A stretch of 64,000 nucleotides of DNA from Leeuwenhoekiella sp. GTDB lineage: Bacteria > Bacteroidota > Bacteroidia > Flavobacteriales > Flavobacteriaceae. The DNA lies in contig CBDCNG010000005.1 of assembly GCA_965219335.1 (NCBI GenBank), positions 121,992 through 185,991 of the forward strand, read 5' to 3'. How positions within the stretch are numbered: the first letter of the stretch is position 1; every line of letters starts with the position of its first letter. The position numbers were made by a program, and so were the translations under genes. The notes under the pieces were generated by a model. It was not told the DNA's origin and ran no database searches. It saw nothing but the letters and a program-made list of their open reading frames with translations. Shown piece by piece: positions 34,657 to 37,404 of this stretch.

Positions 34657-35661
34657 ATGTCATTCAAACTACTTTGCTGGAACATGGAATGGATGAACGA
34701 CCTTTTTGACGGAGAGGGCAGTTTCCGTCCAGATGATTATAAGCCACAGCACAATAAAAACACTACCGTTATTGCCCGAAGACAGGATTTGGCCGGTGTC
34801 ATCAATGAGATTGCCCCTGCTGCAGTGGTTGTGGTTGAGGGGCCCAACCGCACTAAAGAGTTGCAACTTTTTTTTGACTCTGATGTAAAAGGTACCTGGC
34901 AGACTTATATTCAGACAACCAAAGGATCTTCACAATGTGTGGGCATTGCCGTTAGAACCGATACCGGTATTTTTGATGAAACCATCCCATTAAAGACCTT
35001 TAACACCGCCATTGATCCAATTTTTGATGATTTTGAATTGGATAACGAGGATGATGGCATTACAGAAATCTATAAGTTTGAGCGGCGACCTTTATATATT
35101 GAGCTAAAACTCAAAAATGGGGAGCGCTATCGGGTTCTTGGCCTACATTTAAAGAGCAAGGGTATTTTTGATCTACTGGATTGGAGCAAATGGTGGGAAA
35201 GATCTATCGCAAACCGCAGAAAAATCTTTGCGAGTGCCGTGCATTTAAGAACTGAATTTATTGAGCCATACCTGGGCGATGAGGAAACCAAAAATATCCC
35301 TTTGATCGTTTGCGGTGATATAAATGATGGTCCTGGTTTTGACACTGCAGAAAAGAAAATACTGGGTAGCGGGGTAGAAAAACTGATGGGTGATATCTGG
35401 AATCCTTCCACTATTTTGGGAAATGCTATTTATGATACCTATCAAAAATTAGATGTCAGCACAACACGGTATGCCGATCCTATTTTTAATTTCAATTATA
35501 AATACCATTATGTGTGGATCGATCATATTATGTATTCAAAAAATAAAACGGATTGGACAAAAAACGGAACGATCCATGAAGATATGAAGGAAGGAAAAAT
35601 ATGGAACGTTTATCCCCATGCATCTGACCATAGCCCTATTTCTGTTGATATTGATTCTTGA
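34657..35661 (+). CDS. Endonuclease/exonuclease/phosphatase (EEP) family protein
   Basis: WNMEW, VVEGP, HLKS, VCGDINDGPG, WIDHI, SDHSPI. Confidence 0.88.
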   Translation: MSFKLLCWNMEWMNDLFDGEGSFRPDDYKPQHNKNTTVIARRQDLAGVINEIAPAAVVVVEGPNRTKELQLFFDSDVKGTWQTYIQTTKGSSQCVGIAVRTDTGIFDETIPLKTFNTAIDPIFDDFELDNEDDGITEIYKFERRPLYIELKLKNGERYRVLGLHLKSKGIFDLLDWSKWWERSIANRRKIFASAVHLRTEFIEPYLGDEETKNIPLIVCGDINDGPGFDTAEKKILGSGVEKLMGDIWNPSTILGNAIYDTYQKLDVSTTRYADPIFNFNYKYHYVWIDHIMYSKNKTDWTKNGTIHEDMKEGKIWNVYPHASDHSPISVDIDS

Positions 35662-35699: not shown

Positions 35700-35808
35700 A
35701 TATAAGCTTTAAAATTTATAAATATAGATTATAAGTTAATAAGCTTATAAAATTAATTTATAAGTTTTTGAACTTATAACAATATATCATAAGCTAATAT
35801 GCTTATAT
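35700..35808. promoter_or_regulatory. Array of four 22-bp palindromic operators, 29-bp period
   Basis: Consensus TTATAAGYT-N4-ARYTTATAA at 35700, 35729, 35758, 35787 with 7-bp linkers; the fourth overlaps the -7 element TATATTTG (35804-35811). Confidence 0.8.
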
Positions 35809-35816
35809 TTGTTCTC

Positions 35817-36494
35817 ATGAAAAAATTTGCGGTCATATCAGGCGACATTATAGCCTTTACAAGTCTTTCCGATGCATCAAAAAATAATCTGGAGACTGGT
35901 CTTGACGTGTTGTTTAAAGAGTTAAATTCTAGGTTCGATGCTCATTCCAGACTAATAAAAGGAGATTATCTGGAATGTGCGGTACCCAAGCCGCAAGACG
36001 GCTTGCGCATTGCACTAATCATAAAAACGTTTATTAAGACCCTAGACTTGGATGCCAAAAATGAACGCCATCGATTTTTTGAAGAATACGGCATACGTCT
36101 AGCCCTAGGATATGGCACACTCTCCCGGTATGAGCCCCAGAAAGGGATTATTGATGGGGAGGCCATCTACTTAAGTGGGAGAAAAGTAAATGAAGAAAGC
36201 ACCCATAACAAAACGCGCGTAACCATTAAAAATACATTACAATTTGTTTCTAACGATAATGCGCTCAATCAGCCCATGGAAGCCATTTTTGCTCTTTTGG
36301 ATTTTATGCTCATCCGCGCAACTCGAAAACAAAGCGAAGTAGCCCATCATAAACTTTTAGGCCGCAGTGAGGAAGAGATTGCCTCCCTATTGGGCACAAG
36401 CCAGCCTGCCGTAAACCAACATTCTACAAGCATAGGGTGGAATGCCATTGACAAGGCCGTAACCTATTATGAAAAAAAAATAACCCAACTCTAG
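35817..36494 (+). CDS. SatD family protein (nucleotidyl-cyclase-like N-domain + C-terminal HTH)
   Basis: AVISGDII...IKGDYLE, RLALGYG, GEAIYLSG, and HTH SEEEIASLLGTSQPAVNQH; ATG at 35817. Confidence 0.75.
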   Translation: MKKFAVISGDIIAFTSLSDASKNNLETGLDVLFKELNSRFDAHSRLIKGDYLECAVPKPQDGLRIALIIKTFIKTLDLDAKNERHRFFEEYGIRLALGYGTLSRYEPQKGIIDGEAIYLSGRKVNEESTHNKTRVTIKNTLQFVSNDNALNQPMEAIFALLDFMLIRATRKQSEVAHHKLLGRSEEEIASLLGTSQPAVNQHSTSIGWNAIDKAVTYYEKKITQL

Positions 36495-37217
36495 ATGCAA
36501 ACGGCTAACCTTCTCTTATTACAGCTCATTGCCCATTTATTAGCTGACTATACCTTTCAGACCAAAAGAATGGCCATAAATAAAGATAAAAAAGGATTTA
36601 AAGGTAAAATGCTCAAATGGCATATTTTGATCGTATTTACGACCAGTGCCCTTTTAGGATTGGAAAAGTCGTTTATTCCCTTTTCAGCAGTTATTGCAAT
36701 AACACACTGGTGTATAGATGGATGCAAACCACAATTACTGAAAAATAAAGTAACAAGGCACTATGTATTTTTTATAGACCAGGCCCTACATCTGGCCATA
36801 TTCACTGGAGTAGTTTTTTTATACAGGTCCCTAAATGATTGGCAGCTCATAGATCATCGATTTTTAAATACGTTTACGCTGGGGACTGCTGCAGTATTTT
36901 TAATTTGCACAAAACCGGCAAATATTTTTATTCGGGAAGTATTTAACGCTTACGGCATTTACTTTCAGGGCGGCGAAGAAGACCTACCCAATGCCGGAAG
37001 ACTCATTGGTATAATTGAACGTTGGCTGGTGCTTATTTTTATTTTATTTGGCCAATTTTCAGCGGTGGGTTTCCTTATTGGGGCAAAATCAATATTAAGA
37101 TTTAAAGAGACCACTTTCCTAAAAACCGAATATGTACTTGTGGGTACCCTTTTGAGTTTTGGCGTGGCCGTGGTACTGGGGATTTTTGTCAAACAGTTGG
37201 GCCTATATTTTCTTTAA
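36495..37217 (+). CDS. DUF3307 membrane protein
   Basis: QLIAHLLADY, THWCID, DQALHL; C-terminal AGRLIGIIER...AKSILRF...TEYVLVGTLLSF; abuts the SatD stop (TAGATG). Confidence 0.85.
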   Translation: MQTANLLLLQLIAHLLADYTFQTKRMAINKDKKGFKGKMLKWHILIVFTTSALLGLEKSFIPFSAVIAITHWCIDGCKPQLLKNKVTRHYVFFIDQALHLAIFTGVVFLYRSLNDWQLIDHRFLNTFTLGTAAVFLICTKPANIFIREVFNAYGIYFQGGEEDLPNAGRLIGIIERWLVLIFILFGQFSAVGFLIGAKSILRFKETTFLKTEYVLVGTLLSFGVAVVLGIFVKQLGLYFL

Positions 37218-37404
37218 AATCGGCGATAAGTGTCATAATGCTTATTTTTGATCGCTCAAATACGTGGTTAAAAAAATATCGCTTTCGCGGAAGCTTAAAA
37301 ATTTAAAGAATTAATCTTATACAATATAGAAGTAAAGGTTTAAAAAGTCATTTATACTAAATAAAGATTAACAAGAGTTGATCTGTACAAAAAATTAAAT
37401 TCAC

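Follow-up and report, generated by a model that had tools for sequence, protein, structure and literature searches.

A stretch of 64,000 nucleotides (nt) from Leeuwenhoekiella sp. (Bacteroidota; Flavobacteriaceae; contig CBDCNG010000005.1, positions 121,992 to 185,991 of the forward strand), termed here the window, carries a short operon in which a chain of four palindromes precedes a gene for a SatD-like regulator and a gene for a membrane protein of the DUF3307 family. The satD-like gene lies on the plus strand at 35817-36494 (225 codons plus stop) and was identified from its homologues, an AlphaFold2 (AF2) model, Foldseek and profile searches. In this article, we describe the palindromes and the promoter that they adjoin, follow both through homologous loci, metagenomes and viral genomes, and weigh the evidence that the SatD-like protein is what binds them.

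Within 35700-35808 of the window, four imperfect 22-bp palindromes of the form TTATAAGYT-N4-ARCTTATAA follow one another with a start-to-start distance of exactly 29 bp. Counting from the promoter-distal end, O1 (35700-35721; ATATAAGCT-ttaa-AATTTATAA) is the weakest, with arms complementary at 6/9 positions; O2 (35729-35750; TTATAAGTT-aata-AGCTTATAA) pairs at 8/9 positions, and O3 (35758-35779; TTATAAGTT-tttg-AACTTATAA) is a perfect palindrome at 9/9. The promoter-proximal O4 (35787-35808; TCATAAGCT-aata-TGCTTATAT) returns to 6/9, and its right arm is fused to the promoter's -7 box. By arm complementarity O1 and O4 are the weaker sites and O2 and O3 the stronger, and a degenerate first site also is found in the closest relatives of the window locus (L001-L005). 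The letters, the four 22-bp palindromes and the exact period given in the original prediction, which was made from the sequence alone, were all reproduced, and two programs agree with them: a repeat search returned a direct-repeat family of 49 nt in three copies at spacings of 29 and 29, together with the nested inverted repeats that a chain of palindromes is expected to yield, and Tandem Repeats Finder reported a period of 29 with 3.2 copies. The linkers between the sites (atataga, aaattaa and caatata) are each 7 bp long, as had been claimed; their description as AT linkers needs correction, in that they are A/T-rich but not pure A/T. The further claim that the pattern exceeds what A/T-richness alone would give also held. 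The intergenic region holding the array has a G+C content of only 21%, and when the A/T-rich sequence of the array was shuffled 20,000 times with dinucleotides preserved, five of the shuffles produced a four-site chain. Chains of three or more palindromes (9-4-9, at least 6/9 complementary) at 29-bp steps start in the window only at 35700 and 35729, and ATAAG-N8-CTTAT occurs three times in these 64 kb, each time within the array and in register. The sites of the array are real and non-random.

The consensus of the -7 element in Bacteroidota promoters, as known from Bacteroides and Flavobacterium, is TAnnTTTG. A box of this type, TATATTTG, is found by sequence match at 35804-35811 on the plus strand and recurs at fixed offsets in homologue promoters; the right arm of O4 shares five bases with it. 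No -33 TTTG was recognisable at the usual distance in the window promoter, and a sigma-70 promoter scan was uninformative for this Bacteroidota promoter. A search for RNA sequencing runs returned three entries, all of them Logan contigs of unspecified library type. Alignment with homologues (MKKFAVISGD...) places the satD ATG at 35817. The start given in the program-made list of open reading frames (ORFs), an ATG at 35799 that would yield 231 aa, as in the 99%-identical database protein P0001, falls inside O4 and the -7 box and is almost certainly mis-called. Since the -7 box ends only 5 nt before the ATG in the window, and 4-8 nt before it in L001-L005 (15-30 nt in other clades), the satD mRNA of the window clade is probably leaderless or nearly so.

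For a comparison of promoters, the upstream 200 nt of the window gene and of 80 further loci were examined, the latter obtained from a scan of Genome Taxonomy Database (GTDB) species genomes and encoding SatD relatives at 48-75% identity in Flavobacteriales, Bacteroidales and Cytophagales; sites were counted when they matched each locus's own half-site consensus. The original prediction turned on whether such an array stands upstream of satD homologues, and it withstood this check: at least two phased sites are present in 79 of the 81 promoters, the range being two to five, with three sites in 49 promoters and four in 16. Of the two others, L076 has N-masked DNA upstream of the gene and L044 shows no clear array, and there is no single-site promoter among the assessable ones. 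Palindromes (9-4-9) are spaced by 29 bp in 70 instances, by 58 bp in four and by 87 bp in one, with no other spacing enriched. The satD gene is followed by a DUF3307 gene in 76 of the 80 loci (three of the four exceptions are contig ends), whereas the genes flanking the operon in the window recur in 0 and 2 of these loci; because the linkage to DUF3307 is kept and that to the flanking genes is not, the array belongs to a self-contained satD-DUF3307 module.

The position of the array relative to the promoter also is conserved. In 69 of the 81 promoters, TAnnTTTG keeps a fixed distance to the last site, in one of two geometries. In 24 promoters, the window's included, it starts inside the last site, 4 or 2 nt short of its end, and the operator covers the -7 box; in the other 45 it starts 5-9 nt past the last site, and the operator covers the spacer and the -33 position. 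The overlap between O4 and the -7 box that had been pointed out earlier is thus present in the window and has its counterpart in two fixed geometries among the homologue promoters, and the outright fusion of operator and -7 box (...CTTATATTTG) recurs in 17 of the 81, window included. A few loci depart from these arrangements. In L012, L046, L048 and L053 (metagenome-assembled genomes (MAGs) of Flavobacterium/Flavobacteriaceae) and in L013 and L023, an array with its own fused -7 box stands 85-200 nt upstream of satD, and a second TAnnTTTG lies nearer the gene; at L046, an A/T hairpin (AATGTTTTT...AAAAACATT) lies between the array and the nearer TAnnTTTG. Such distant arrays may denote a long leader or a second promoter. 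At L062 (an Aequorivita MAG), a G+C-rich palindrome (GTCCGCCGCGGCGGAC) occurs three times upstream of the array, at about -331, -278 and -206 from satD, and looks like a repetitive extragenic palindrome (REP)-type element unrelated to the operators.

Several features of the sites indicate how they are recognised. Over 240 sites, deviations from the locus consensus at arm positions 1-7 were uncompensated in 266 cases and compensated in 9, and arm positions 8 and 9 are complementary in 39% and 58% of the sites, respectively. Information peaks at T2 A3 T4 and at A19 T20 A21, the site centre shows a T-rich and then an A-rich preference, and constraint on the linker is weak; within arrays, identity amounts to 0.81-1.00 for the arms, 0.49-0.63 for the centre and a mean of 0.53 for the linkers. 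When folded as RNA, O2-O4 have predicted energies of -4.9 to -5.8 kcal/mol and O1 one of -0.1, and an Rfam scan over the array gave chance-level matches only (E >=0.16, far below gathering thresholds). Because arm deviations are almost never compensated, the comparison identifies the palindromes as protein sites rather than hairpins, that is, as paired half-sites that appear to be read by a symmetric protein and not as a conserved stem. Two other classes of repeat were rejected: a mobile palindrome resembling a REP doublet forming a hairpin (REPIN) or a miniature inverted-repeat transposable element (MITE), in view of one array per contig, variable inner sequence and conserved arms and spacing, and an array resembling clustered regularly interspaced short palindromic repeats (CRISPR), in view of repeats that are palindromic 22-mers with 7-nt linkers.

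The AF2 model, Foldseek and profile searches divide the SatD-like regulator into two parts, a class-III-cyclase-like fold at residues ~1-160 and a four-helix helix-turn-helix (HTH) domain of the LuxR/sigma-70-region-4 type at residues ~165-225. The model, built from a 30-sequence alignment, has a predicted local distance difference test (pLDDT) score of 92.8 and a predicted template modelling (pTM) score of 0.91. All 50 matches listed by Foldseek against the PDB are class III adenylyl/guanylyl cyclases (best 4wp8_B; E 2.1e-4, probability 1.00, TM 0.39/0.51), and the first match of an N-terminal-only profile that included classical SatD proteins was the cyclase Ma1120, at a marginal E of 0.03. 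In that marginal alignment, D10 and D50 are placed against the metal-aspartate motifs TDI and GDG of Ma1120; both residues are invariant even with classical SatD proteins in the alignment, and R122 and G121 also are invariant. Pfam's Guanylate_cyc had no match in the window protein at E<=10, and, while a cyclase fold is predicted, the protein is not classed as an active cyclase. At the C terminus, the model places helices at residues 170-180, 185-192, 196-206 and 208-224 (pLDDT 94-98), of which the third is the predicted recognition helix. Pfam gives the window protein a sub-threshold Sigma70_r4_2 match only (residues 177-202; 18.7 bits vs a cut-off of 25.7), relatives reach 30.6-32.1 bits with Sigma70_r4_2 and 23.9 with GerE (cut-off 23.5), and PDB profile matches of the C terminus are to LuxR-family chains, weakly so (E 0.19-0.21). 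As modelled, the SatD-like protein would be a cyclase-homology domain joined directly to a LuxR/sigma-region-4-type HTH.

Since Pfam does not place the window protein, the family assignment was taken from its homologues. Against the SatD family PF16264 (gathering score 29 bits), the relative P0093 scores 32.5 bits and ORFs from L200 and L147 score 37.2 and 40.1, with P0018 just under the cut-off at 27.4; in a profile search, PF16264-positive ORFs were matched over both domains with E of 1e-12 to 1e-20, and 12-50% of the listed homologues have precomputed PF16264 matches. These comparisons suggest that the window protein represents a divergent Bacteroidota subfamily of SatD. SatD-like homologues fall into 913 clusters at 90% identity, nearly all from Bacteroidota, and there are ~1,400 SatD clusters at 50% identity. 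NCBI records label many members of the subfamily 'fumarate hydratase' (P0005, P0009, P0029, P0062, P0065 and others), a name to which sequence and fold give no support and which looks like a propagated misannotation.

The half-sites vary by lineage, taking the forms TTATAAG, TTATAGG, TTAAAGG/TTAAAGT, TTATGTG/TTATGTA, TTATTAG and TTATCGG. At 75 loci, and with no correction for phylogeny, each column of the full-length protein alignment was scored for its mutual information with half-site bases 4-6; together with the AF2 helix at residues 196-206, this analysis defines a predicted recognition helix at codons 195-206 (SQPAVNQHSTSI; 36399-36434, plus strand). The top column for base 4 is T204 (tied with S44), with T replaced by L or I where TTAT becomes TTAA in 7/7 loci. 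For base 5, S195 is the top column and also ranks first of ~225 in summed mutual information, and Q201 ranks first after entropy normalisation, Q giving way to R where A becomes G in 9/9 loci. At base 6, A198 ties for the top: A or S accompanies TTATAAG in 36 of 37 loci, and V198 accompanies TTATAGG in 23 loci across Cytophagales, Bacteroidales and several Flavobacteriaceae genera. S195, A198, Q201 and T204 stand at i, i+3, i+6 and i+9 and thus line one face of the recognition helix. The original prediction had assigned the sites to the SatD C-terminal HTH, an assignment that draws support from the co-variation of the half-sites with T204, S195/Q201 and A198; together, these data make a strong circumstantial case, short of proof, that the SatD HTH reads the sites of the array.

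The association of arrays with SatD is also found outside the window protein's subfamily. An exact-pattern scan of metagenome contigs, requiring two perfect sites at 29 bp, returned at least 120 loci; among the matches listed, a SatD ORF directly adjoins the array in 45 (50 with a broadened profile), and none encodes SatD elsewhere in the fetched DNA, away from the array. Divergent PF16264-positive SatD proteins with 21-28% identity to the window protein also adjoin TTATAAG arrays at 29 bp, and the association thus holds across the SatD family. The recognition helix of these divergent proteins differs (e.g. ISQPAVRQRLKRAG), and since a different helix accompanies the same TTATAAG arrays, read-out evidently does not follow a simple one-to-one code. 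Individual loci show further arrangements. At L169:1-1050 the two genes are separated by a three-site array, which stands between the stop codon of satD and the start of DUF3307; at L193:13540-13810 a ~124-bp unit comprising an array and the first ~15 satD codons is tandemly repeated; and at L100:220-420 the satD frame that comes after an array is interrupted past codon 40. In L110, L114 and L126, the array stands directly 3' of the stop codon of hsdS, a type I restriction specificity gene; satD starts after the array in L110, and a gene for a 410-aa P-loop ATPase follows it instead in L126, where the operator seems to have been reused before a different gene in a restriction/defence neighbourhood.

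Pairs and triples of TTATAAG-N8-CTTATAA with the 7-bp linker also occur, away from any SatD or DUF3307 gene in the fetched DNA, as orphan arrays at viral loci (L201-L239) and at ~70 of the metagenomic loci L081-L200 (e.g. L212:2539-2589, L203:3053-3103 and L104:722-772). The original prediction did not anticipate them. Around the metagenomic orphans the neighbouring genes are heterogeneous and in many cases phage-like. Many orphan arrays are in contigs of jumbo-phage size with 22-25% G+C, where they follow stop codons directly, flank bidirectional terminators or lie within tRNA clusters. The viral arrays were obtained from a scan of IMG/VR in which the linker was left free at 0-30 nt, yielding 39 loci and 26 distinct arrays; a linker of 7 nt was found in 39/39 loci, and an additional one of 6 nt in four three-site arrays. 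The phage-type pair can be written as TTATAAGG-N6-CCTTATAA taken twice. No SatD or DUF3307 gene was detected within <=15 kb in the 39 viral loci with HTH-only, N-terminal-only, broadened SatD and DUF3307 profiles, and no SatD homologue was found in IMG/VR, among INPHARED phages (tblastn) or on PLSDB plasmids (tblastn). Nor is there a shared gene beside the SatD-less arrays, all-against-all clustering of flanking and abutting ORFs having given only small unrelated groups (HsdS, primase-like, metallophosphatase and tail proteins). Among cultured phages, those of Tenacibaculum, Prevotella (Lak), Chryseobacterium and Flavobacterium encode the nearest relatives of the phage genes that neighbour the orphan arrays; in Tenacibaculum phage pT24, no array was found over the first 50 kb. 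In phage tRNA clusters, the pair adjoins tRNA-His in 8 of 11 loci checked (L212, L214, L224, L239, L217, L228, L109 and L094), separating tRNA-Cys from tRNA-His in three of the eight and directly following the 3' end of tRNA-His in the other five, and the remaining three loci have it beside tRNA-Gln or tRNA-Phe. TAnnTTTG is present at the canonical offsets of 6/70 metagenomic and 1/39 viral orphan arrays. Orphan sites show no self-complementarity over their inner 8 nt (0.37-0.40), the composition of these sites resembles that of the operators of classical SatD proteins, and host SatD is the obvious candidate binder.

We consider it probable that the palindromes form a cooperative autorepression array for dimers of the operon's own SatD. 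In such an array, each 22-bp dyad would be occupied by one SatD-like dimer through its C-terminal HTH, with recognition-helix residues 195-204 reading the outer arm TTATAAG, and the rigid 29-bp spacing would bring neighbouring dimers into touch, such that the array fills cooperatively as one unit. Contact and cooperative filling are suggested by a period that stays invariant despite diverged half-sites and linkers, by the lack of single-site promoters and by the weaker O1 and O4. The promoter-proximal dimer, placed over the -7 box or, in the other geometry, over the -33 region, would exclude RNA polymerase and thereby repress the operon. The N-terminal cyclase-like domain would likely serve as a dimerisation and signal module, with the binding or turnover of a nucleotide setting operator occupancy; because both metal aspartates are kept, this domain may still bind a nucleotide and perhaps turn it over. 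In Streptococcus pyogenes, satD is the only gene that combines accessory status in the pangenome (178/249 genomes) with essentiality in all strains assayed by transposon sequencing (PMC11323703), which fits a repressor of a harmful partner. We infer SatD binding, its stoichiometry and cooperativity, the sign of regulation and control by a ligand from sequences and their comparison.

With a period of 29 bp, or 2.76 turns of B-DNA, each dimer of the array would be turned by about -86 degrees relative to the one before it, and a full revolution would take four sites, which span 116 bp or 11.05 turns. Between outer conserved blocks the distance is ~15 bp inside a site and ~14 bp over a linker, which makes the half-sites a near-even alternating chain. 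Speculatively, such half-site geometry could accommodate HTH-HTH and cyclase-domain contacts linked in a daisy chain.

Several observations weigh against autorepression by SatD as set out above. In the mutual information analysis, the N-terminal columns E127, A80 and F87 score as high as the residues of the recognition helix, and the co-variation is confounded by phylogeny. Classical SatD proteins with the helix SQPAVRQRLKR still stand beside TTATAAG arrays. Half-sites ~15 bp apart are not what a simple HTH dimer docked on a single DNA face would usually require. The window protein has no match to PF16264 even at E<=10 and lies below every Pfam cut-off in the Pfam and NCBIfam scans. At least 70 metagenomic and 39 viral loci carry arrays with no SatD gene in the fetched DNA, and arrays that stand away from SatD genes leave room for another binder.

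A further reading, which we regard as unlikely but worth stating, would have the array act as a nucleation track for a nucleotide-controlled SatD filament rather than as operators bound one by one, with the jumbo-phage copies as functional targets of host SatD that make satD-DUF3307 a phage-responsive switch. In such a filament, HTH-HTH contacts across dyads would alternate with cyclase-domain contacts across the 7-bp linkers, an arrangement that would account for the 15/14-bp pitch of half-sites and for the invariant 29-bp period. The promoter-less phage copies would then be decoys that titrate the repressor, or sites for sensing phage DNA.

Other explanations differ as to what the bound array does, or as to whether SatD binds it at all. 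It is unlikely, in our estimation, that a SatD-bound array acts positively, as an upstream activator track which, by recruiting or replacing sigma contacts, leads to autoinduction. Proteins with LuxR-type/sigma-region-4-like HTHs often are activators, 3/4 sites in the window lie upstream of a core promoter that has no recognisable -33 TTTG, and the last site, located at the -33 position in 45/81 promoters, could substitute for the -33 element. However, in the window and 23 further promoters the last site sits on the -7 box, which is hard to square with open-complex formation, a site centred near -28 corresponds to no known activator position, and the 'essential accessory' satD of S. pyogenes fits a repressor better. 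That the sites belong instead to another protein, a Bacteroidota host factor or one of phage type, with SatD a mere regulated neighbour, we think improbable. The case for such a protein is made by the orphan arrays, which repeat the two- or three-site form and the 7-bp linker identically at 39 viral loci and at least 70 metagenomic ones where <=15 kb of sequence contains no SatD/DUF3307 ORF, and by the failure to find SatD homologues in IMG/VR, INPHARED and PLSDB. Yet wherever SatD is encoded in the fetched loci an array adjoins it, in 45/45 loci among the metagenomic matches listed and in 79/81 promoters, changes in the half-site track the SatD recognition helix, and no other conserved gene accompanies the arrays.

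The remaining alternatives concern the DNA itself. The 29-bp period could be a relic of the tandem duplication of a 29-bp unit, with the sites bound independently, and this would explain why the inner 8 nt match at seven or more positions in 13/77 neighbouring pairs at the genome loci, and more commonly so in metagenomic and viral arrays, and why linkers within arrays reach the mean identity of 0.53 given above. We judge it very unlikely: linkers are identical in only 3/108 within-array comparisons, their length is essentially invariant across orders in which half-sites have diverged, all 39 viral loci have a linker of 7 nt (plus 6 in four three-site arrays) when any length from 0 to 30 nt would have been accepted, and no assessable promoter has a single site. 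That the palindromes serve as DNA cruciforms, or as RNA hairpins by which the upstream transcript is terminated or stabilised, is scarcely credible. Each site can fold as RNA, and many orphan arrays come right after stop codons, by terminators or tRNA genes; however, the arms vary with 266 uncompensated deviations against 9, positions 8-9 pair in 39-58% of sites, the upstream gene is not conserved, the array keeps a fixed offset upstream of the -7 box, Rfam has no match, and the inner 8 nt of orphan sites lack self-complementarity. Autorepression by cooperating SatD dimers is the reading that we favour.

The putative cargo of the operon is the DUF3307 gene at 36495-37217 (plus strand), which encodes a membrane protein of 240 aa (PF11750 at 4.8e-24) and is placed in the operon because its ATG directly abuts the satD stop codon. 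Its model is all-alpha and polytopic (pLDDT 89.5), and a structure search of the PDB found no fold relatives, the best E being 1.1. An invariant cluster of H14, D18, Q22, H43, H71, D75, K78, D95, Q96 and H99 looks, from these His/Asp/Gln residues, like a membrane-embedded metal site. In PHROGs, the protein matches the 'membrane protein' family phrog_2470 (1.2e-15), the sole PHROGs result, and PADLOC models gave no match to either the SatD-like or the DUF3307 protein at E<=1. The original suggestion that such tight repression is typical of toxic or stress/defence modules has its one indirect support in the 'essential accessory' status of satD in S. pyogenes. At 37226-37250 (plus strand), 9 nt past the DUF3307 stop, the sequence ATAAGTG-tcataa-TGCTTAT followed by TTTTTG forms a hairpin that looks like an operator at half strength but is more likely a weak terminator at the end of the operon; having an arm spacing of N10 rather than N8, it was left out of the operator count, and it was not called by a terminator scan requiring at least three G-C pairs. 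Upstream of the array, a 334-aa ORF (34657-35661) has no Pfam match at E<=0.01; its C-terminal ...HASDHSPISVDI presumably resembles the catalytic end of endonuclease/exonuclease/phosphatase-fold enzymes.

Comparison with characterized systems places the operon within a known kind, the autoregulatory operator arrays, and its core appears to follow ordinary regulatory logic. In Escherichia coli hipBA, HipB dimers bind cooperatively to four TATCC-N8-GGATA palindromes. The two operons share four 5-mer-N8-5-mer dyads over ~100 bp that overlap the core promoter of a small operon whose first gene encodes an HTH repressor; the second hipBA product is harmful when over-made, whereas toxicity of DUF3307 is only conjectured. 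They differ in the HTH, which is Xre in HipB and LuxR/sigma-r4-like in SatD, in the cyclase-like domain that SatD alone possesses, in the partner, a kinase in hipBA and a polytopic membrane protein here, and in the period, which here is rigidly 29 bp throughout the family. The OR1-3 and OL1-3 operators of phage lambda similarly are adjacent imperfect palindromes of graded quality over a promoter, at which CI shows pairwise cooperativity and autoregulation; unlike the 22-bp sites described here, with their invariant 7-bp linker and two to six copies, the lambda sites are 17 bp long with unequal spacers (~23-24 bp), and the satD array has no divergent promoter pair.

With respect to its DNA-binding domain, SatD resembles the LuxR/FixJ/GerE proteins (TraR, LuxR, DosR and NarL; 18-20-bp boxes) in its C-terminal four-helix HTH, recognised by weak profile matches, and in its ~20-bp dyad targets. 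It departs from them in an N terminus with cyclase homology in place of an autoinducer-binding or receiver domain, and in sites that conserve the outer 7 bp, ~15 bp apart, and always form phased arrays. A cyclase-homology domain and a LuxR-type HTH in one polypeptide also occur in proteins of the Mycobacterium tuberculosis Rv0386 type, for which, to our knowledge, DNA targets have not been defined. The MalT-like STAND (signal transduction ATPases with numerous domains)-LuxR proteins offer another likeness, in that nucleotide-dependent oligomerisation of MalT is coupled to the binding of repeated sites. In contrast to both types, SatD is a minimal two-domain protein of ~225 aa without NB-ARC/TPR modules, and MalT boxes, unlike the satD sites, are asymmetric and activate transcription. 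The name-giving sat operon of Streptococcus mutans is the secretion and acid tolerance operon; with it and with Pfam's SatD family PF16264 the window protein shares profile-level homology, length, two-part architecture and a DUF3307 neighbour, although it falls below every Pfam threshold. In the literature searched, no operator architecture, DNA binding or cyclase relationship is described for SatD or DUF3307. What would set the system apart from these precedents is the direct fusion of cyclase-like domain and HTH, conservation of the outer 7 bp in a 22-bp dyad, a rigid family-wide period of a non-integral number of turns, and the promoter-less phage copies.

The satD-DUF3307 pairs are widespread, and the array gives the SatD family a candidate DNA target, TTATAAG-N8-CTTATAA in 29-bp phase. 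Further handles are a cyclase-like sensor domain that retains its metal ligands and a helix that probably reads the DNA, in which four residues are candidates for specificity; with these, SatD, a domain without known biochemical function, becomes a directly testable regulator-operator pair. It is unusual for a strict period of a non-integral number of turns to persist from Flavobacteriales through distant PF16264 members to phage genomes; if protein-protein contact sets this period, repressor assembly along DNA would here take a new form. Finally, the orphan arrays of Bacteroidota jumbo phages suggest a possible host-phage interface.

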